Assembly: GCA_964415275.1 (NCBI GenBank)
Contig: CAYPZF010000002.1
Location: 1 to 28,219 of the forward strand
Reading direction: 5' to 3'
From: an uncultured Oscillospiraceae bacterium
GTDB taxonomy: Bacteria; Bacillota; Clostridia; Oscillospirales; Oscillospiraceae
DNA: 28,219 nt
Made by a program: the position numbers and the translations under genes. A model generated the notes under the pieces. That model was not told the DNA's origin. It worked only from the letters and a program-made list of their open reading frames with translations, and did not search any database. The first letter of the stretch is position 1. The number at the start of each line of letters is the position of its first letter. Below are positions 3,382 through 17,526 of the stretch, piece after piece.

Positions 3382-3960
3382 CTATAAAAACAGGGAGACG
3401 GCACAGTAGACCAGCAGCAGTGCCATCACGGTGTTGATTGCCCGGCCGTGGTTGGCGAACAGCCGGTAGAGCGCCGTGCCGAAGAGGGACCAGCACACCG
3501 TGGCCGACGCGCTGGCCGTCGCCAACAGGAGGGCAAAGCCCAGCAAGGCGGCGGGGGCCTGGTAGTAGGGCAGGATGTACGAGGTCATGGCAGTGAGGCC
3601 GAAAATCAGGTTTTTAGGGTTGACCAACTGGAGGAGCACGCCGGAGAGAAAGGACGCCTCGCCCGTCCGGTCCGTGCTGCCGGGGGTGCTGCGGAAAATC
3701 CGCCAGGCCAAGTAGAGCATATAGGCCGCGCCCAGGGTCATCAGCACCGGTTTGACTTTGGGGACCCAGGTGTACAGCATCTTGCCAAACAGGGCGCAGG
3801 ACGACATCGTGAAGGTGCCCCCCACGAACACGCCCAGGTTAAAGGGATAGCTGCGCCGGAAGCCCAGTCTGCCCCCAAAACTCATGGAGAGCAGGTTGTT
3901 GGGCCCCGGTGTGTAAGCCATGATAAACGCGTAAGTAAGAAGTGTCGGCCACTGGAACAT
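3382..3960 (-). CDS. LysE/RhtB-family amino-acid exporter (EamB-like)
   Basis: 192 aa and hydrophobic, with YTPGPNN, GAAYMLYLAW and QLVNPK family motifs. Confidence 0.88.
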   Translation of the reverse strand: MFQWPTLLTYAFIMAYTPGPNNLLSMSFGGRLGFRRSYPFNLGVFVGGTFTMSSCALFGKMLYTWVPKVKPVLMTLGAAYMLYLAWRIFRSTPGSTDRTGEASFLSGVLLQLVNPKNLIFGLTAMTSYILPYYQAPAALLGFALLLATASASATVCWSLFGTALYRLFANHGRAINTVMALLLVYCAVSLFL

Positions 3961-9198: not shown

Positions 9199-11106
9199 TT
9201 AAAGTGGCCAGGAAGGCAGCCATCGGAGAATACAGGTCGAAAACCCCGCCGGGATGGGGATGCCGATGAGCACCGGGTAGAACAGGCCGTAGAGCCCCGC
9301 GTTGAGACCCGTGACGCCGTAAACCGGCAGACGCCAGCGGCCTTGGGGCCGCTCCATCAGATCGTTCATCAGGCTGGCGATGCCCAGCGCCAGAAAGAGC
9401 GTGGCGGGAAAGTAGTGGTAGGCGAAGGTGGGGCGGCTGATGGGCAGCCAGGGCAGCAGCTGGGCCAGATAGCCCACCAGAAGGAACAGCGCGGTGCCGG
9501 AGCGAAACCGCACGGCCTTGATGGCCATGGCCCCCATGCACAGCAGGCCCAGCCAGCTCACCACCGGGTTGTTGAAGGCGGCGAAGGCGGACTTGAGACC
9601 GGCGGCGGTGTGCTCACGGTAGTACAGAATGGGGCGGAGGTCCAGCATCCACTGCCACCACTTGGAGGCGTACGGGTGGGTGGCGTCCACCCCCCTGTGG
9701 TAGGTGAACATGAACTTCTGGTTCTCCCACACGATAGTGAGCAGGTTGGACAGGCTGGTGTCCCCCCTGGCCTGGGCGTAGGGGAGGTAGGCGACCACAT
9801 AGACGCACAGGGGGAGGACCACGAAGGCCAGGACGGAGAACAGGACGGTCTTTCCCGCCCAGGAGGCGAAGGTGGGGCCCGTCAGCTCCCCGGGCCAGTC
9901 ACGGCGCTTCTGCCACAGGTTGACAGCGTAGAGGACGGCCATGCCCGCGCCGCCGTAGAGCACCGTCCACTTACAGGCCGCGCCGAGACCGAACATCAGC
10001 CCCGAGAGCAGAAGGGAGGGCGCGCACCGGCGAAACGGCGTGCCGGCGGGCAGGGACAAAAACCGCCACAGGAAAAAATACATGGCCAGCGTAAAAAAGA
10101 CCGCGTAGGTGTCAATGGTGGCGATGCGGGTCTGGGTCAGGTGCATGAAGTCGAAGGCGAACAGGCTGGTCCCGCACAGGGCCAGGGGGGTCTTTCCAAA
10201 GAGGTTCTTGAGAAAGAGGTAGAGCAGTGGCAGCATCAGCACCCCAAAGAGGGTCCCCACAAAGCGCCAGCCAAAGGGAGTCATGCCAAACGCCCGGATG
10301 CCCAGGCCGATGAGCAGCTTCCCCAGGGGCGGGTGGGAGACCTCGTAGGGGTAGACCCCCCGGATATGCTCATAGGCGGTGCGGGCGTGGTAGATCTCGT
10401 CAAAATAGGAGGAGGTGAGATAGGAGCGCTCCGCCGGGATGACCTCCTGCTCGTCGAACAGGGCGTCCGCCCCGGCAACCCCGATGCCGCCCGGCGAGAG
10501 GTCCAAAAGGGCGGGCTGTGTCCCGCCGTCCGCCGTTCCGTACAGGGCCAGCTCGCCCAGCTCCAGACTGTCCTTTAGCGCGGTGAGACGGAGGTACCGC
10601 GCCCGCATGGGGGTGAGGGGGGTCTTGTCCTCCCCCTCCAGGGTCTGCCACTTAAAGAGGGTGGCGTAGGTCTGCCGGATTCTGGGCAGGGCCTGCCAGG
10701 TTTGTCCGTCGGCGGAGGCCTCCAGCGTGTATTCGCCGGTCCCCAGGCCGGTGTAGTAGGTCACGCCGGTGAGGGTGACCTCCCGGTCCAGGGAGACGGT
10801 CACCTCAGACACATCGGCAAAGCTCTGGAAGGACTGGGGCGCGGCGCGCGCCCCCAGGCCCCAGAACGCGGAGAAGGCATACACCGCGGTGAGGAGGAGC
10901 AGGGGCAGCGCATCCCTCCGCTCCATGGGGTGGCGGGCGGCGGCAAAGCTCATCCGGGGGCTGATTACCCACTGCCGCACCCGCTCCAGCGCGGTAGGAC
11001 GGCACATGAGCTCGGACCACCAGTGGCTGAAAAATAAAAGCGCCACCGTAGCGGCCGCCAGGGGAAAGAGCAGGGTAGGGGTAATGTAAGCCGCGATTGC
11101 CTGCAT
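9199..11106 (-). CDS. GT-C (PMT/GT39-like) lipid-carrier-dependent glycosyltransferase with an inserted discoidin/F5-8-like domain
   Basis: YFDEIYH, HPPLGK, FGWR, RIATIDT, KW, HPYAS.WWQW and YHYFP motifs with many TM segments. A soluble beta-rich segment (YTLEASADGQTW...ARYLRL...LELGELALY) precedes the DE motif. Start at ATG 11106 after GAGGTG. Confidence 0.8.
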   Translation of the reverse strand: MQAIAAYITPTLLFPLAAATVALLFFSHWWSELMCRPTALERVRQWVISPRMSFAAARHPMERRDALPLLLLTAVYAFSAFWGLGARAAPQSFQSFADVSEVTVSLDREVTLTGVTYYTGLGTGEYTLEASADGQTWQALPRIRQTYATLFKWQTLEGEDKTPLTPMRARYLRLTALKDSLELGELALYGTADGGTQPALLDLSPGGIGVAGADALFDEQEVIPAERSYLTSSYFDEIYHARTAYEHIRGVYPYEVSHPPLGKLLIGLGIRAFGMTPFGWRFVGTLFGVLMLPLLYLFLKNLFGKTPLALCGTSLFAFDFMHLTQTRIATIDTYAVFFTLAMYFFLWRFLSLPAGTPFRRCAPSLLLSGLMFGLGAACKWTVLYGGAGMAVLYAVNLWQKRRDWPGELTGPTFASWAGKTVLFSVLAFVVLPLCVYVVAYLPYAQARGDTSLSNLLTIVWENQKFMFTYHRGVDATHPYASKWWQWMLDLRPILYYREHTAAGLKSAFAAFNNPVVSWLGLLCMGAMAIKAVRFRSGTALFLLVGYLAQLLPWLPISRPTFAYHYFPATLFLALGIASLMNDLMERPQGRWRLPVYGVTGLNAGLYGLFYPVLIGIPIPAGFSTCILRWLPSWPL

Positions 11107-11132
11107 GACACACCTCACAGCAAATAGTAAAA

Positions 11133-11161: not shown

Positions 11162-11190
11162 ATTCTATGTCTTTTTTTCCCGTTTGTCAA
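11162..11190 (-). promoter_or_regulatory. Sigma-A promoter for the PMT-like gene
   Basis: TTGACA (11190-11185), 17 nt spacer, TAGAAT (11167-11162). The -35 box overlaps the ssb stop codon. Confidence 0.7.
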
Positions 11191-11789
11191 AGGGCGAATC
11201 GCATCACCGAAACCTCAAAGGCGGTGCGGGTTTCACTGCGCCCGTCCACCAGCTTGCGGTACTCCCGGCTCTGAAGGCGGCCCTCCAGGCGGATCAGCTC
11301 TCCCACCTCCAGCGCGCCGCAGGCGGAGGCCACGCTCCCCCAGGCGATACAGGGGAGATAGTCGGTTCGTCCGTACCGCCGGTTGACGGCCAGCAGGAGG
11401 TCGCAGATGTCCCGGCCCAGGGGCGTACGCCGGAGAATGGGTGCCTTGCACAGGGCGCCGGCCAGCAGCACCTGGTTGAGCGGCTCCCCCATTCCGGGCT
11501 CCAGGCTGCGGGTAAAAAAGGTGATCACCAGACGGTTGCCGGAGCCGCCCTTATTGTTAAACGAGCGCACCTCTCCCTCCGCCTGGACCCAGTCGCCGGG
11601 GGAGAGCGGACACATCGCCATCAGCTGGGCGGGGGCCACAACGTTAAGTATGTCCTCCGTCCCTGAGAGCCGGGGCACCGCCAGGGGGAAGACAAGGTAA
11701 TCCTCCCCATGGTTTTGATGGGAAAAGACAGGTGCCTCCGCCACCCGCCCCCGCAGCATCGCCCGGTTTTCATGCTCCTCGCTCCGCAT
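11187..11789 (-). CDS. Single-stranded DNA-binding protein paralog with two tandem OB folds
   Basis: The second half has SSB motifs (RRTPLGR.ICDLLLAVNR.YG.TDY.PCIAWG, GRLQSREY, TAFEVSV). The first half is a divergent repeat (RLSGTED, GEVRSFN). Confidence 0.8.
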   Translation of the reverse strand: MRSEEHENRAMLRGRVAEAPVFSHQNHGEDYLVFPLAVPRLSGTEDILNVVAPAQLMAMCPLSPGDWVQAEGEVRSFNNKGGSGNRLVITFFTRSLEPGMGEPLNQVLLAGALCKAPILRRTPLGRDICDLLLAVNRRYGRTDYLPCIAWGSVASACGALEVGELIRLEGRLQSREYRKLVDGRSETRTAFEVSVMRFAL

Positions 11790-11883: not shown

Positions 11884-13131
11884 CTACTGCAGCAGGGCGC
11901 GGTATCCGTCCTCCCCGCCCACACGGCCCACCGCCGACAGAGACGCCTGGGAGAGCTCGAACATCTGGCGGGCCAGGGTCAGGACCTCGTCCCGGGTCAC
12001 GGCGTCATAGGCGTGAATGATCTCGTCCGGCGAGAGCACCTGCCCGGTGAGGATGGTGGAGCGGCCCAGGTAGCTCATGCGGGCCTGGGTGGACTCCAGC
12101 CCCATGAGGACGTTGGCCTTGGACTGCTCCCGGGCACGGTCCAGCTCCTCCTGGGTGGGGCCGTGGGCGGCAAACTCCCGCACCACCCGGGCGATGGTGC
12201 CCAGGGCCTCTCCCTCGGTCTCCTTCCCCAGGGCGGTGTAGATGGAGAAGAGACCGGTCTCGGCATGGCCCGCGCCGTAGGCGTAGATGCTGTAACAGAG
12301 GCCGCGGCGCTCCCGCACCTCCTGGAACAGCCGGGAGGACATCCCGCCGCCCAGAATGGTCGTGAGGAGCTGGAGGGCAAACCGGCGGCCATCCCCGTAG
12401 GGCAGGCCGGGAAAGGCCAGCGCCAGATGGTTTTGCTCCGTGGCCTTCTTTTTGAGGGTAAAGGCGGGCTTGTAAACCGCGGGCCTGGGGGCGGGGACGG
12501 CACCGCCGTCCAAGGTGAGCAGCCGCGCCTTCAGCGCCTCCACCACCGCGCTGTCAAAGCTGCCCGCCAGGGTTACGATGAGGTCGTCGCCGCCGTAATG
12601 GGCCCTTTGATAGGCCCGCAGGCACGCCCCCGTCATGGCGGACAGGGTGGCAGGCCTGCCTAAGATGGGGCGGGCCAGGGCGCTGCCCCGGTAGACGGCG
12701 GCGAAGAGCCGCTCCGCGCACAGGTCCTCCGGACTGTCCCGGTACATGCCGATCTCCTCTAATATGACCCCCCGCTCGGTGGCCACGTCGGCCTCGTCGA
12801 ACTTAGAGGCGAACACCATATCCCACAAGATGTCCATGGCCTGCTCCAGGTGGATATCCAGAGCGCGGGCGTAGAAGCAGGTGTGCTCCTTGGTGGTATA
12901 GGCGTTAATCTGACCGCCGATGGCGTCGGTCTCCTGGGCGATCTGGGCGGCGGTGCGCCGGTGGGTGCCCTTAAAGACCATGTGCTCGATAAAATGGGCG
13001 GCGCCGCTCTCCGACGCCTTTTCATGGCGGGAGCCGGTGGCAACCCAAAACCCCAGGGCGGCGGAGCGCACGCCGGGGATGTGTTCGGTGAGCAGGCGCA
13101 CACCGTTTGGGAGGGTGGTCTCTTCGTACAT
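11884..13131 (-). CDS. M16 (pitrilysin/insulinase) family zinc peptidase
   Basis: HFIEHMVFKGT (HxxEH), NAYT.KEHTCF, ERGVILEE and GGGMSSRLFQEVRE.RGL. Start at ATG 13131 after AGAGGT. Confidence 0.92.
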   Translation of the reverse strand: MYEETTLPNGVRLLTEHIPGVRSAALGFWVATGSRHEKASESGAAHFIEHMVFKGTHRRTAAQIAQETDAIGGQINAYTTKEHTCFYARALDIHLEQAMDILWDMVFASKFDEADVATERGVILEEIGMYRDSPEDLCAERLFAAVYRGSALARPILGRPATLSAMTGACLRAYQRAHYGGDDLIVTLAGSFDSAVVEALKARLLTLDGGAVPAPRPAVYKPAFTLKKKATEQNHLALAFPGLPYGDGRRFALQLLTTILGGGMSSRLFQEVRERRGLCYSIYAYGAGHAETGLFSIYTALGKETEGEALGTIARVVREFAAHGPTQEELDRAREQSKANVLMGLESTQARMSYLGRSTILTGQVLSPDEIIHAYDAVTRDEVLTLARQMFELSQASLSAVGRVGGEDGYRALLQ

Positions 13132-13180: not shown

Positions 13181-15526
13181 CTAGGGCGTGACGGTGGTGC
13201 CCAGGGCCTTTTGGGCGATGGCCTCCAGCAGCAGGGCGTGCTCCACCCGGCCGTCCAGCACCACCACGGTGCCCACCCCATGGGCCACGGCATGGACACA
13301 CCCCTTCACCTTGGGCACCATGCCCCCCGCGATGAGCCCGGCGTCCAGCAGCTCCCTGGCCCGGGCCTGGTCCATGTGGGGAATGCGGGTGGCCTGATTG
13401 TGGTGGTCCACCAGAATGCCGTTGGTGTCGGTGAGAAAGACCAGCTTGTGGGCGGCCATTGCCTCGGCCACGGCCCGGGCCGCGTCGTCGGCGTTGCAGT
13501 TGAGGCCGCCCTCCGGCCCCAGGGCGATGGGGGAAACTACGGGCAAGAAGCCGTTGTCCAGCAGGGTGTGGAGCACCTTGGTGTCCACCCCGGTGATCTC
13601 TCCCACCCGGCCCAAGGCCGGGTCCTTGCAGCGGGCGGTGAGCCCCACGGCGGAGACCCCCAGGGTGCCCAGGGCGGCCACGATGCCCTTGTTCACCTGG
13701 GCGGAGAGAACCATCTCAGCGCAGTCCAGGACGGTCTCGTCGGTGACCCGATAGCCGTCCACAAAGGCGGTTTCCACCCCCAGCCTGTCCAGCAGGGCGG
13801 AGATGTCCTTGCCGCCGCCGTGGACCAGCACCACCCGGGCGCCCACCTGGTGCAGGGCGGCCACGTCCCGCAAGATGCTGTCCGCCGCGCCGGAGGGCCC
13901 CAGGGCGCTGCCGCCGTACTTGAGGACAAGGGTCTTGCCGGTGTACCCCCGCAGGACGGGCAGCACATCCAGAAACCCCCGCACCTTCTCCATGCCGTCC
14001 AGCCCGTGGGCGACGTCGTACGCGTGGAGAAAGGTCTTTGTATATTCTACATCGGAAGGACACTCGATATACACAAGGCCCCGCTTTTGTCGGGTCTCGG
14101 CCCCCTTGCCGGTGATGAGGACAACGGTGGGAGTCTCACAGCCCAGGATGGCCTGGCGGATGGCCTGGCCCCGGTGGGGCTGAATGGAGTAGTCGCAGCC
14201 CTCGGCCTCCACCCAGGCGGCAATCTCCCGGCAGATGGCCTCGGTGTCCTCCTCCCCCGAGTCCTCCTCGGTGAGGATGACCAGGTCGGAGTATCGGCCC
14301 GAAATCTCCCCCAGGTCCCGCCGGCGGTCCAGGGCCTTTTTGCCGGGGCAGCCAAAGACGGTGACGATGCGGCGGCCAGGGTACTCCTCTAGCGTGGACT
14401 GAAACAGCTTCTCAAAGGAGAGCCGGTTGTGGGCGTAGTCTACAATGGCGATGACCCGGTCGTCGGCGTTGGTGTAAATCTCCATTCGGCCGGGCACCCG
14501 TGCCTTCATGAGCCCCACGTAGATGGCCTGCTCCGGGATGCCCAGCCCCTCGCACACGGCGATGGCGGCCAGGGCGTTCTGCACATTGAAGAGGCCGGGC
14601 ATGGTGAGCCGGAATTCCCGGCTGTACCGCAGGGTCTTGACCCGGAAGAGGATGTCGTTGCCGCTCTTGCGCACGTTGGAGCCGTACACCGTGGCGCCCG
14701 GGTCGGTCTGGGAGAAGGTAATCACCCGGGGGCAGCGGCGGGCGGCCGCCAGCACCCGGTCGGCGTGGTCGCTGTCCAGGTTGACGCAGGCCAGGCCGGT
14801 CTGCTGGAAAATTCGCAGCTTGGAGGCAAAATAGTCCTCAAAATCCGGGTGCTCAATGGGGGAGACGTGGTCGTACCCGATGTTCAAAAAGACGGCGGCG
14901 GCGAACTCCACGCCCAGGACCCGGCCGTACTTGAGGCCCTGACTGGAGACCTCCATGGTGAGGTATTCCATCCCCGCGGAGACGCCGTTGGCAAAATGAC
15001 GCGCCAGATCCAGGGGCTCCGGCGTGGTGAGGTGGCTCTCAAAGCGCTCCACCCCGTCGTAGGTGTCAATAGAGCCGATGACGCCGCTCTCGGCCTTCCC
15101 CGCGCCCGCGGCGTATTCGTCAAAGATATACTTGAGATAGTAGGAGGTGGAGGATTTGCCCTTGGTGCCGGTGACCCCCACCACATTAAGCCGGCCGCTG
15201 GGGTGGTTGTAGTAGAAGCCGGCCAGCAGGGCCATGGCCCTGCGCACGTCGTTGACCAGCAGACAGGGGGCCCCCCCGGCCTCGGGATACGGGTGGTCGG
15301 CCAGGTAGAAAAACGCGCCCTTGCGGAGAGCGTCGGCCAGATAGGCCCCCTTGAAGTGGGCCCCCTTGCAGATGAACAGGGTGCCGGGGACCACCTGCCG
15401 GGAGTCGCAGGAGACCAGCGTAACCGGGCGGGCCAGGTCGGCGGCCGGAGGGGCCCCGCCTGTGAGCAGGCCCTCCCGCAGCAGCAGCTGGTAGTAATCG
15501 CCCAGGGTATGATAGTTCTGGTCCAT
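13181..15526 (-). CDS. MurE-type UDP-MurNAc-tripeptide synthetase fused in frame to a C-terminal acetylglutamate kinase (ArgB) domain, 781 aa
   Basis: MurE part: DSRQV.PGTLF, VTGTKGKSS, TTPE, MEVSS, FLN...DH, PGRME, VDYAHN and LITGKG. ArgB part from about 13993: LKYGGS, VHGGG, GYRVTD, NADDAA, LTD, GGMVPKV and HALLLE. No stop lies between them. Start at ATG 15526 after AGAGGT. Confidence 0.9.
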   Translation of the reverse strand: MDQNYHTLGDYYQLLLREGLLTGGAPPAADLARPVTLVSCDSRQVVPGTLFICKGAHFKGAYLADALRKGAFFYLADHPYPEAGGAPCLLVNDVRRAMALLAGFYYNHPSGRLNVVGVTGTKGKSSTSYYLKYIFDEYAAGAGKAESGVIGSIDTYDGVERFESHLTTPEPLDLARHFANGVSAGMEYLTMEVSSQGLKYGRVLGVEFAAAVFLNIGYDHVSPIEHPDFEDYFASKLRIFQQTGLACVNLDSDHADRVLAAARRCPRVITFSQTDPGATVYGSNVRKSGNDILFRVKTLRYSREFRLTMPGLFNVQNALAAIAVCEGLGIPEQAIYVGLMKARVPGRMEIYTNADDRVIAIVDYAHNRLSFEKLFQSTLEEYPGRRIVTVFGCPGKKALDRRRDLGEISGRYSDLVILTEEDSGEEDTEAICREIAAWVEAEGCDYSIQPHRGQAIRQAILGCETPTVVLITGKGAETRQKRGLVYIECPSDVEYTKTFLHAYDVAHGLDGMEKVRGFLDVLPVLRGYTGKTLVLKYGGSALGPSGAADSILRDVAALHQVGARVVLVHGGGKDISALLDRLGVETAFVDGYRVTDETVLDCAEMVLSAQVNKGIVAALGTLGVSAVGLTARCKDPALGRVGEITGVDTKVLHTLLDNGFLPVVSPIALGPEGGLNCNADDAARAVAEAMAAHKLVFLTDTNGILVDHHNQATRIPHMDQARARELLDAGLIAGGMVPKVKGCVHAVAHGVGTVVVLDGRVEHALLLEAIAQKALGTTVTP

Positions 15527-15594
15527 AACTGCACCTCTCTTCCCGTGACAGACGGGGCGCTTGGCCGCCGGCCCCGCACCCCCTTGCCTGTGGC

Positions 15595-16305
15595 TCACAC
15601 TGTCCGCAGGCGTTTGCCGCAGAAGGTGATGGCCTTCTCCACCAGCACCTCCATGGCGTCGATGTAAAAATCGGGCAGACCGTGGTACACCCGGTAGACC
15701 GACAGCTCCGTGCAGCCCAGAATGGCGCTGTCACAGCCCTGGCTCCGCAGGCTGCGGTCGATGGCGGTGAACTTCTCCCGGCTGCCCTTTTCCCCTTTTT
15801 TAATCTCGTCATAGATGACGGCCATAATAAGGCGCTGGGTCTCCGGGTCGGGGGCCACGGGGGTGAGGCCCTGGGCCTGGCAGGCCCGCTGGTACACCCC
15901 GGTCTGGATGGTGCCGTCGGTGGCCAAAATGCCCACCCGGCGGCGGCCGCGGGCGGCCAGGGCCGCGGTGGCCTCCCGCACCATATTGAGAATCGGCACG
16001 TCCACCGCCGCCTGGAGCCTGTCCACAAAATAGTGGGAGGTGTTGCAGGGGATGGCGATGGCGGTGCAGCCGCAGCCGGCCAGAAGGTTAGCGTTGTCCA
16101 GCAGACGGCTGTAGACCACTTCGCCCCGGCCGCTCAAAATGTACTCCGTGCGGTCCGGCATCTCGGTGTCGCTCAAAATCAAGACGGGCAGGTGTTCCTG
16201 GTCGCGGGCGGCCTCGGTCCGGTCTAAAATCCGCTGGTAGAAGATCTGGGTGGCCTGGGGGCCCATGCCGCCGATGACGCCCAGCCGGGCGGTTGGCTCT
16301 GTCAT
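15595..16305 (-). CDS. Aspartate/glutamate racemase family protein, probably aspartate racemase (RacD-like)
   Basis: LGVIGGMGP.AT, DQEH, PDRT, and two catalytic Cys motifs (IPCNTSHYF, LGCTELS). Confidence 0.9.
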   Translation of the reverse strand: MTEPTARLGVIGGMGPQATQIFYQRILDRTEAARDQEHLPVLILSDTEMPDRTEYILSGRGEVVYSRLLDNANLLAGCGCTAIAIPCNTSHYFVDRLQAAVDVPILNMVREATAALAARGRRRVGILATDGTIQTGVYQRACQAQGLTPVAPDPETQRLIMAVIYDEIKKGEKGSREKFTAIDRSLRSQGCDSAILGCTELSVYRVYHGLPDFYIDAMEVLVEKAITFCGKRLRTV

Positions 16306-16314
16306 AACTGCTCC

Positions 16315-17526
16315 TTACTCGGGCCGGTGGTAGTGCTTTTTAAACTTGTAATAGTGACCCAGTTGATTTTTAAGAAGGCGCAGCTTGCTCCGCGCCCCCT
16401 GGTTGGCGGGCCCGTACTTCAGGGCGTTGTGATAGGCCCCGGCCTTGACCAGGGCGCGCATCTCCTGGTGATAGCGGCTGGGGGTGTACCGGTAGGCCAC
16501 CCCCAGGGGCACCATGGTCCAGAGGGAGCGGCCGCAGGCCATCACCGGCTCCAGGTCCCGGCCCAGGACCCGGTCCTCCACCAAAAGCCGGGCGATGTTG
16601 TGTCCGGCGCCGGTGACGTAGTAATTGCTGCGCCCTTGGCGGCAGTTGATTTCAAACACCTTATAGGTTCCGTCGCGCTGGTCGAATTTAAGGTCGAAAT
16701 TGGAGAAGCCGGTGAACTGTACCGCCTCCAGAAATCCGCGCAGCCGGCCGCACAGCGCGTCGTTGGTCTCGGTGAGGATGACCGCGTGGTTGCCGATGCC
16801 GTGGGGAGTGTGCTCCTCCAGCAGGACGTGGCCCAGACACATGAGCTTCACCTGGCTGTTCCGGTCGGAATAGCAGGTGAGCACCCGCATGTAGCTGTCG
16901 TCCCCGGGGATGAAGTCCTGGATGACCATGGAGTCGTCGTACCCCGAGGCGTAGACTTTGTCCAGCACCTCCTCCAGCTCCGCCCGGTCCCGGCAGATAA
17001 AGACCTTTTTGTTCCCCTCAAAGGGGTGGTCCCAGTAGGCCACGCCGTTAGAGGGCTTGCAGACGAAGGGGGGCGGGAAGGGGAGGGTGAAGCCGCGCCC
17101 CATCTCGGCCCGGTGGATGAAGGTGTCGGGGTAGTCGATGCCCATCTGGTCGCACAGGGCGTAAAACCGCTCCTTGTGGATCAGGGTGTTGATGAGGGCG
17201 CCGGGCGCGTAGGGCGCCACGCAGTTGGCGGGGAAGTCCTCCTTGTGCTCGGCGCAGAGCTTTACATAGCTGTCCCCGCAGCCGATGACCAGAATGGTCT
17301 TGTCCGGGTGGGCGGCGGCCACATCGGCCACATTCCCGCAGAATACGGCGGCCTCCTCGTTCTCCGGACAGACGCGGTAGTCAATGATGGCGTTGTCATA
17401 GGCGGGGCCGGAGGGGAACTTGCCGTAACAGATGGAGCGCATGCCGTAGGCCTCGTGAAAGGCGCGGGCCACGCTGTAGACATTGATATCCCCTCCAAAC
17501 AGGAGGGGCAGGAAGTTCAGGTCCAT
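16315..17526 (-). CDS. ATP-grasp carboxylate-amine ligase, D-aspartate ligase (Asl/YxbA) type
   Basis: N-terminal PLLFGGDINVYSVARAFHEAYG, GCGD.YV, KPSN, QDFIPGDD, LLEEH.P..IGN, DLKFD.RDG.YK.FEINCRQGRS.YY. These are ATP-grasp metal/ATP motifs plus the N-terminus I recognise from D-Asp ligases, and the gene sits next to an Asp racemase. Confidence 0.8.
   Translation of the reverse strand: MDLNFLPLLFGGDINVYSVARAFHEAYGMRSICYGKFPSGPAYDNAIIDYRVCPENEEAAVFCGNVADVAAAHPDKTILVIGCGDSYVKLCAEHKEDFPANCVAPYAPGALINTLIHKERFYALCDQMGIDYPDTFIHRAEMGRGFTLPFPPPFVCKPSNGVAYWDHPFEGNKKVFICRDRAELEEVLDKVYASGYDDSMVIQDFIPGDDSYMRVLTCYSDRNSQVKLMCLGHVLLEEHTPHGIGNHAVILTETNDALCGRLRGFLEAVQFTGFSNFDLKFDQRDGTYKVFEINCRQGRSNYYVTGAGHNIARLLVEDRVLGRDLEPVMACGRSLWTMVPLGVAYRYTPSRYHQEMRALVKAGAYHNALKYGPANQGARSKLRLLKNQLGHYYKFKKHYHRPE

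Follow-up and report, generated by a model that had tools for sequence, protein, structure and literature searches.

Acetylglutamate kinase (NAGK, encoded by argB) performs the committed step towards ornithine, which is normally inhibited by arginine. In Enterococcus faecium and Lactococcus, an ATP-grasp D-aspartate ligase and an aspartate racemase add a D-Asp cross-bridge to residue 3 of the peptidoglycan stem peptide. Elements of both pathways occur side by side in the DNA analyzed here, a stretch of 28,219 nucleotides from an uncultured Oscillospiraceae bacterium (contig CAYPZF010000002.1 of assembly GCA_964415275.1; the whole stretch is hereafter called the window), in which one gene encodes a fusion of the Mur ligase MurE with NAGK and directly follows genes for an aspartate racemase and a putative D-aspartate ligase. 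The fusion is real and occurs in at least 80 related species of gut Clostridia. Its kinase half has kept the catalytic residues and appears to lack a conserved arginine-inhibitor site, and its MurE half resembles ligases that accept a cationic side chain.

Arginine binds NAGK in the region of the N-terminal helix and of helix H-beta16 (PMC3329491), and K196 and F19 contact the inhibitor (PMC3182869). For MurE, the P-loop GxxGK(T/S) and the carbamylated Lys motif are used here as defined in PMC3829189. In enzymes that add meso-diaminopimelate (mDAP), the Asn and Arg of a DNPR motif bind the distal carboxylate of the substrate, whereas the Lys-type MurE of Staphylococcus aureus has DNPA, without an Arg at the fourth position, and holds the side-chain amine in an acidic pocket of Asp406 and Glu460 (PMC3829189). 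The S. aureus enzyme accepts ornithine weakly, and its selectivity is aided by the cytoplasmic Lys:DAP ratio (PMC3829189).

One gene for MurE and acetylglutamate kinase

The fusion gene lies in an open reading frame (ORF) on the minus strand (13181..15598). Translation would give 805 aa if it began at the farthest GTG and 781 aa if it began at the ATG at 15526. The ATG is taken as the start because an AGAGG Shine-Dalgarno (SD) sequence, read from the DNA, is located 7 nt 5' of it and because it lines up with the N-termini of homologs (e.g., MDRTLHGLGDY in protein P0122). The GTG at 15598, which overlaps the racemase stop codon, was rejected on the same two grounds. An internal start at Met512 was rejected as well, since no SD-like sequence precedes it and the position, which is Leu in 23 of 80 homologs and Met in the other 57, offers no conserved start. 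The gene and its parts are as follows.

13181-15526, minus strand: complete coding sequence of the MurE-NAGK fusion, 781 aa, stop codon TAG at 13183-13181; MurE comprises residues 1 to ~506 and NAGK residues ~512-781
15527-15594, minus strand: spacer between the racemase stop codon and the fusion start, containing the AGAGG SD and no terminator-like site
14552-15175, minus strand: Mur ligase middle (ATP-binding) domain, residues 118-325 (Pfam Mur_ligase_M, PF08245, E 4.9e-36)
14102-14491, minus strand: Mur ligase C-terminal (amino-acid-binding) domain, residues 346-475 (Pfam Mur_ligase_C, PF02875, E 4.7e-24; alignments with E. coli and M. tuberculosis MurE)
14249-14272, minus strand: putative specificity motif T-E-E-D-S-G-E-E, residues 419-426
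13949-14053, minus strand: junction, residues 492-526
13256-13936, minus strand: amino acid kinase (NAGK/ArgB) domain, residues 531-757 (Pfam AA_kinase, PF00696, E 1e-43; TIGR00761)
13640-13645, minus strand: site of an in-frame deletion of 24 nt (8 aa, ISGKDGGL) between G628 and L629, placed by an alignment of 81 sequences

Both halves score above the cut-offs of their NCBIfam models, namely murE TIGR01085 (295.7 bits against 257.3, covering residues 34-483) and argB TIGR00761 (198.5 bits against 151.3). An earlier note on this DNA, made from the letters of the window, had described a single 781-codon frame for MurE and NAGK with six retained kinase motifs and no convincing ribosome-binding site before the internal Met. 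The frame was borne out by the ORF, the start codon with its SD and the Pfam and NCBIfam matches, all six motifs are present, and the region before Met512 is as the note had described it. Scans of the window with Rfam and for tRNA genes, promoters and terminators returned nothing relevant.

The same note had the two halves joined by a linker. They are joined, but the junction is a nearly invariant, structured helix-turn-helix and not a loose linker. The usual MurE C-terminal segment (CPSDVEY...L..YD) extends to about residue 506, its last helix (492-506) is followed by a five-residue turn, HGLDG (507-511), and the turn leads directly into the N-terminal helix of NAGK (512-526). S491, D492, V493, Y495, L500, D504, H507 and D510 are invariant (80/80 in counts for the stretch). 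In an AlphaFold2 model of the fusion (mean predicted local distance difference test, pLDDT, 81), residues 491-510 have a pLDDT of ~89-90; the low predicted template modelling score (pTM 0.53) means that the model does not fix how the two halves are placed relative to each other.

Distribution of the fusion

A search over 5.8 billion proteins found, besides the window protein, at least 120 protein clusters with all three domains (from NCBI, JGI, ENA, and Logan). Their members share 65-82% identity with the window protein and are 754-835 aa long, nearly all of them 786-796 aa. Among those with names are proteins of Pseudoflavonifractor phocaeensis, Intestinimonas butyriciproducens, and Lawsonibacter; the label given to most is simply "acetylglutamate kinase."

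Genomic loci were compared in the best 80 of 571 related stretches, from a scan of one genome per species of the Genome Taxonomy Database (GTDB); these 80 come from 80 different species. The earlier note had regarded separate genes in close relatives as the mark of an assembly artefact; instead, a single uninterrupted frame runs over both halves at all 80 loci. Cultured isolates are among them (P. phocaeensis An901, Pseudoflavonifractor sp. An85 and AF19-9AC, I. aquisgranensis CLA-AA-H199, Flintibacter faecis BX5, and Lawsonibacter spp.). Judged by these sequences, one clade of gut Clostridia has the fusion as a fixed trait, namely the group of Evtepia, Intestinimonas, Pseudoflavonifractor, Lawsonibacter, and Flintibacter.

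When the kinase half was searched against representatives clustered at 50% identity, one full-length fused protein (P0122, 795 aa) and several fragments were recovered, and scores stepped down from 310-353 bits for fused proteins to ~215 bits for the nearest free NAGKs (40-50% identity). This drop points to the fused kinases as one distinct clade of single origin. The closest free NAGK, P0126, is Thermaerobacter-like, with relatives in Tumebacillus, Effusibacillus, Syntrophomonadaceae, and cyanobacteria, and its likeness to the fused domain probably stems from a shared high G+C content. Protein P0121, seemingly a free NAGK at 65% identity, was set aside as a truncated gene call, as its first residues, MIHGLDG, begin at the junction Val (GTG) of YDVIHGLDG.

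Other multi-domain NAGKs appeared near the fused clade in the kinase search, namely NAGK-ArgD, ArgJ-NAGK, and NAGK-ornithine carbamoyltransferase (P0137, P0249, P0261, P0204, and P0257). NAGK thus joins other domains readily, otherwise with pathway partners alone. Because the other NAGK fusions seen have arginine-pathway partners, MurE is an unusual partner.

Catalytic residues and the arginine site of the kinase half

The closest solved relatives of the kinase half are the hexameric, arginine-inhibited NAGKs of Synechococcus (2jj4), Thermotoga maritima (2bty), Arabidopsis (2rd5), and Pseudomonas aeruginosa. Its motifs are KYGGS (536-540), HGGG (569-572), RVT (593-595), NAD (678-680), LTD (698-700), and GGMVPK (734-739). 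In an alignment of the 80 fused domains with 115 representatives of free (stand-alone) NAGKs, the K-x-GG loop, HGGG, R593, N-x-N-A-D, and GGM-x-PK are invariant in both sets; by residue, these include K536, G538-G539, H569GGG, R593, N676/N678, D680, and K739. With these catalytic and N-acetylglutamate (NAG)-binding residues and a TIGR00761 score above the cut-off, the kinase half is assigned to ArgB on sequence. The N-terminal helix (512-526), which aligns with T. maritima residues 5-20 and is modelled as a helix, places it by alignment and model in the hexameric, arginine-sensitive class of NAGKs.

The residues around the arginine inhibitor show a different pattern (T. maritima numbering). 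Gly at G272 is found in 92 of the 115 free NAGKs and in none of the 80 fused domains, and likewise no fused domain has His at H253 (88/115 free), Phe at F268 (81/115), Ala at A12 (80/115), Ile at I16 (75/115), or an aromatic residue at Y15 (91/115). Thr at S/T269 falls from 87/115 to 3/80 and an aromatic residue at F19 from 93/115 to 27/80. These positions (G272, H253, S269, F268, A12, Y15, I16, and F19) have the greatest conservation losses in the fused clade, and the conservation of K196 is weakened. The fused kinases thus appear to lack the conserved arginine-inhibitor site. Because the loss is concentrated at the feedback site while the catalytic residues are kept, we infer that arginine inhibition is lost or strongly weakened in the fused kinase.

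Three residues beside the NAG site are clade-specific and invariant in the fused proteins, namely Y592 before R593 (mostly Leu in free NAGKs), C677 in N-C-NAD (Ile or Val in free NAGKs), and K573 after HGGG. The Tyr and Lys of these substitutions are also present in some free NAGKs.

The ISGKDGGL segment is present in all 80 homologs and in canonical NAGKs and is missing from the window copy alone. DNA comparison places GGG/GGC microhomology on the flanks of the 24-nt gap, and residues 622-629 have a pLDDT below 50 in the AlphaFold2 model. The gap may be genuine variation, may inactivate the kinase, or may stem from an error of assembly. A separate 312-aa protein (P0125), which has a DUF362 N-terminus followed by the C-terminal part of a fused-clade NAGK, breaks where the window deletion lies (..GCAC|TARQKD..) and is probably an assembly chimera formed in GC-rich sequence.

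Predicted substrate of the MurE half

The MurE half has the P-loop GTKGKSS at residues 119-125, within an invariant G117-T-G-T-K-G-K-S-S, and K236 aligns with the carbamylated Lys262 of Mycobacterium tuberculosis MurE (2wtz). Further invariant motifs are D219-H220, D363-YAHN, and G473-KG-x-E477. Together with the TIGR01085 score, the P-loop and the carbamyl-Lys position identify this half as a predicted MurE.

In the alignment with E. coli MurE, DNPR (413-416) falls opposite E421-D-S-G424 of the specificity motif. T419, E420, E421, D422, G424, E425, and E426 are invariant in 35 sequences, and the fifth motif residue varies; the position of E. coli R389 is Lys in the fusion. By this alignment, the fusion MurE does not carry the DNPR signature of mDAP-adding enzymes, and its motif lacks the fourth-position Arg, as does that of the Lys-type S. 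aureus enzyme, and lies in an acidic stretch. No species-level MurE equivalog cut-off among the NCBIfam models for mDAP or L-Lys was reached, with scores far below them; the L-Lys model NF010628 (PRK14022 equivalog), for example, gave 328 bits against a cut-off of 536. The replacement of DNPR by EDSG in an acidic stretch fits a substrate with a cationic side chain, and L-lysine or L-ornithine is the predicted substrate.

The gene cluster of the fusion

The fusion is the last gene of a three-gene unit, followed at a short distance by a peptidase gene.

16315-17526, minus strand: ATP-grasp ligase, 403 aa, putative D-aspartate ligase (weak carbamoyl-phosphate-synthase-like ATP-grasp matches)
15595-16305, minus strand: aspartate racemase, 236 aa, directly upstream of the fusion (PF01177; TIGR00035, 212 bits)
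11884-13131, minus strand: M16 peptidase gene, 49 nt downstream of the fusion (Pfam M16 and M16_C; ATG at 13131 with an AAGAGG SD)

The best solved relative of the racemase is the Pyrococcus aspartate racemase 1jfl (E 9.5e-45). The ATP-grasp protein has no Pfam match of its own and no solved relative in a sequence search; orthologs at 65-70% identity are labelled D-aspartate ligase by JGI, NCBI, and UniRef. Of the 62 loci whose upstream sequence reaches 3 kb or more, 54 have both genes immediately before the fusion, and the median gap between racemase and fusion is 51.5 nt in loci with both genes upstream. I. butyriciproducens has the same order of ATP-grasp gene, racemase, and fusion, with a small gene inserted; this gene (locus L081, 9254-9466, between racemase and fusion) encodes a 70-aa DNA-binding-type helix-turn-helix protein (HTH_3/HTH_31) that could be a local regulator. 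An aspartate racemase beside an ATP-grasp ligase is the arrangement of a D-Asp cross-bridge system, and its adjacency to the fusion suggests that the peptidoglycan of the clade has a D-Asp cross-bridge.

The outer neighbors vary. The M16 peptidase gene, which is probably co-transcribed with the fusion in the window, follows the fusion in 34 of the 80 loci, and RelA occurs in 32 of the 80. The flank genes recognized over the loci were those for the ATP-grasp protein, aspartate racemase, RelA, RecJ, and M16; no arg gene was recognized in flanks of up to 10 kb at 82 loci, in a clustering made noisy by antisense ORFs of the high-G+C DNA. Within these flanks, the fused argB is not associated with other recognized arg genes. 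By eye, 13 loci of the Lawsonibacter/Pseudoflavonifractor group (e.g., locus L025, 6814-7881) have a gene for a 355-aa alanine-racemase-like protein on the upstream side of the ATP-grasp gene, and some flanks have MurJ-like and LtaS-like genes and proA. The alanine-racemase-like, MurJ-like, and LtaS-like genes would add to the wall-related neighbors.

Proposed function and alternatives

The locus may encode a bifunctional enzyme in which a feedback-resistant kinase supplies ornithine and is coupled to the synthesis of a wall with a D-Asp bridge, a reading that we hold tentatively and rate somewhat short of an even chance. The kinase half (the C-terminal 270 residues) would phosphorylate NAG, the committed step towards ornithine, free of arginine feedback, and the MurE half would add a diamino acid whose side chain is cationic (L-ornithine or L-lysine) at stem position 3. 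The ATP-grasp "D-aspartate ligase," the aspartate racemase, and MurE-NAGK would together build a stem peptide in which residue 3 bears a D-Asp cross-bridge. Through the fusion, each ligase that uses up the diamino acid would be paired with one feedback-resistant source of ornithine, and wall synthesis would be kept from stalling when gut arginine is plentiful. A fuller version of this proposal, in which an arginine-insensitive NAGK and a pool-dependent, ornithine-adding MurE form a supply-coupling device for an L-Orn-D-Asp wall in the arginine-rich gut, seems to us doubtful. The earlier note had suggested, as one possibility, that the kinase makes ornithine for the ligase to which it is fused; this reading fits the catalytic residues, the acidic, non-DAP motif, the operon, and the decayed arginine site.

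Several points weigh against this proposal. D-Asp bridges are best known on L-Lys, and lysine and ornithine are not separable as MurE substrates by sequence. Four steps separate NAGK from ornithine, which makes co-expression rather than channelling the expected effect of the fusion. The residue-level assignment of the arginine site follows in part what Ramon-Maiques (JMB 2006) and Fernandez-Murga (J Bacteriol 2008) are said to have reported. Of the two halves, the kinase is the faster to evolve (pairwise ratios of nonsynonymous to synonymous substitution, dN/dS, of 0.19-0.58, against 0.19-0.25 for MurE), which is a weak indication with dS near saturation. The kinase of the window copy may be impaired by its 8-residue deletion, and 6 of the 62 loci with ample upstream sequence have neither racemase nor ligase. 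The literature searched for a peptidoglycan chemotype of these genera yielded microbiome surveys and work on unrelated taxa, and no such chemotype was found. Finally, should the fusion be the sole argB of these genomes, the data would be explained equally well by two housekeeping genes that became joined neutrally.

Such a neutral, "Rosetta-stone" fusion is the main rival explanation. It would have joined a sole murE and a sole argB once, through loss of a stop codon and of intergenic sequence, and would have left the halves with separate, uncoupled jobs in a lysine-type wall and in arginine synthesis. Both halves indeed look like ordinary, catalytically intact enzymes above their family cut-offs, the fusion has a single origin and vertical inheritance, the NCBI pipeline names it plainly acetylglutamate kinase, and no second argB for these genera was seen among the relatives of P0126, itself Thermaerobacter-like. 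We nevertheless consider a neutral fusion unlikely, though credible: the junction is a nearly invariant, structured helix-turn-helix and not a leftover linker, the loss of conservation falls on the feedback site in particular, where a housekeeping ArgB that controls its pathway would not be expected to show it, the gene is located in a wall-bridge operon without arg genes, and the other NAGK fusions seen all have pathway partners.

The invariance of catalytic and substrate-binding residues over 80 species also bears on the other suggestion of the earlier note, a regulatory domain that senses arginine, ornithine, or NAG, as these residues would be needless in a pure sensor or scaffold. The kinase fold could in principle act as such a module or oligomerize MurE into hexamers through an NAGK ring. 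It belongs to the hexameric class with the interlacing N-terminal helix present, MurE is attached directly to that helix so that oligomerization would assemble the ligase domains, the window copy tolerates its 8-residue deletion, and the kinase half evolves faster. Yet the site of the known effector, arginine, is the least conserved part, and this suggestion, less supported than ornithine supply, seems improbable. A shift of the kinase to another N-acyl acidic amino acid of a wall precursor, such as N-acylated Glu or Asp on a nucleotide precursor, would agree with the clade-specific, invariant Y592, C677, and K573 beside the NAG-site residues and with the wall-related operon, but we judge it very improbable, given a score above the argB equivalog-domain cut-off, the same Tyr and Lys in some free NAGKs, and a known pathway in which MurE and the ATP-grasp ligase activate their own carboxylates and no extra kinase step is needed. 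Assembly or sequencing error that joined two adjacent genes has a negligible probability. The window is a single metagenomic-looking contig, and its exact protein is found on one contig alone, but independent assemblies of 80 species and cultured isolates, including I. butyriciproducens, share the frame; artefact is thereby refuted for the fusion, whereas the 24-nt deletion at 13640-13645 may still be one.

If the supply-coupling proposal is true, this would be the first case in which the third stem residue is secured by a ligase fused to the controlling enzyme of that residue's biosynthesis. It would represent a new way to fix wall chemistry, by tying the ligase to a deregulated substrate source rather than by a selective MurE pocket, and a natural experiment on the idea, derived from S. 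aureus, of a Lys-type MurE that relies in part on cytoplasmic pools (PMC3829189). If the NAGK ring forms, six MurE domains would be gathered in one particle. The clade holds abundant butyrate-producing gut commensals (Intestinimonas, Lawsonibacter, Flintibacter, and Evtepia) whose peptidoglycan fragments reach the host, and any ornithine and D-Asp in their walls would bear on innate immune recognition. Public names that give "acetylglutamate kinase" or "MurE" alone hide one of the two functions in metabolic reconstructions.

Other genes of the window

The window belongs to the ordinary chromosome of an organism of the Clostridium class that forms spores and has 65% G+C. Its other genes encode shikimate kinase, a DEAD helicase, MnmG, MnmA, a PMT-type glycosyltransferase, and a single-stranded DNA-binding (SSB)-like protein, as well as the M16 peptidase, RelA/SpoT, RecJ, an LtaS-like protein, glycyl-tRNA synthetase (GlyRS), and the GPR spore protease. 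The glycosyltransferase (9199-11118, minus strand; 639 aa) is a membrane protein of the PMT (protein O-mannosyltransferase-like) family with an F5/8 type C (discoidin) domain, a combination unusual for a bacterium of the Clostridium class. The SSB-like protein (11187-11789, minus strand; 200 aa; PRK05813) has an OB fold in its C-terminal half alone (residues 104-196), and its gene is followed by a terminator-like hairpin (11161-11131), the sole convincing one in the region. A translocator of the LysE type, a family of basic amino-acid exporters, is encoded at 3382-3960 (minus strand), ~10 kb away from the fusion gene, to which no evidence connects it.

Comparison with known systems

Both domains are known enzymes, and their combination is new to the literature searched, in which no description of a MurE-NAGK fusion was found. 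With MurE enzymes the protein shares the three-domain Mur ligase architecture, the P-loop, the carbamyl-Lys position, the DYAH and GKGxE motifs, and a passing TIGR01085 score. It differs from them by the 270-residue C-terminal kinase and by EDSG, within TEEDSGEED, in place of DNPR (mDAP) or DNPA (S. aureus). The hexameric NAGKs (T. maritima 2BTY, P. aeruginosa 2BUF, Synechococcus 2JJ4, and Arabidopsis 2RD5) are ~45-50% identical to the kinase half, as estimated by eye, and have the same catalytic and NAG-site residues and the same N-terminal helix. In the fusion, however, this helix is preceded by a whole MurE, Y15, F19, and the residues of helix H-beta16 are unconserved, the gene lies outside an arg operon, and the window copy is without the SGKDG turn.

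The gene cluster is most readily likened to the Aslfm-racemase operon of E. faecium and Lactococcus, where Aslfm, as Bellais and Veiga are said to have reported in 2006, adds D-Asp to the side-chain amine of precursor residue 3. In both, the gene for an ATP-grasp ligase stands next to an aspartate racemase gene in the same direction, and orthologs of the putative ligase are annotated as D-aspartate ligase; here, in contrast, MurE directly follows the pair, and MurE carries a kinase. MurE has also been joined to another enzyme in one polypeptide in MurE-MurF fusions (PRK11929; solved structure 8F5D, "multifunctional fusion protein"). These combine consecutive steps of one pathway, whereas MurE-NAGK joins wall synthesis to amino-acid biosynthesis. 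Further NAGK fusions are bifunctional N-acetylglutamate synthase/NAGK (NAGS/NAGK) and yeast Arg5,6 (PMC3329491, PMC3236213). Like NAGK-ArgD, ArgJ-NAGK, and the ornithine carbamoyltransferase fusion, these have partners from the arginine pathway; the partner in the gut Clostridia, MurE, lies outside it.

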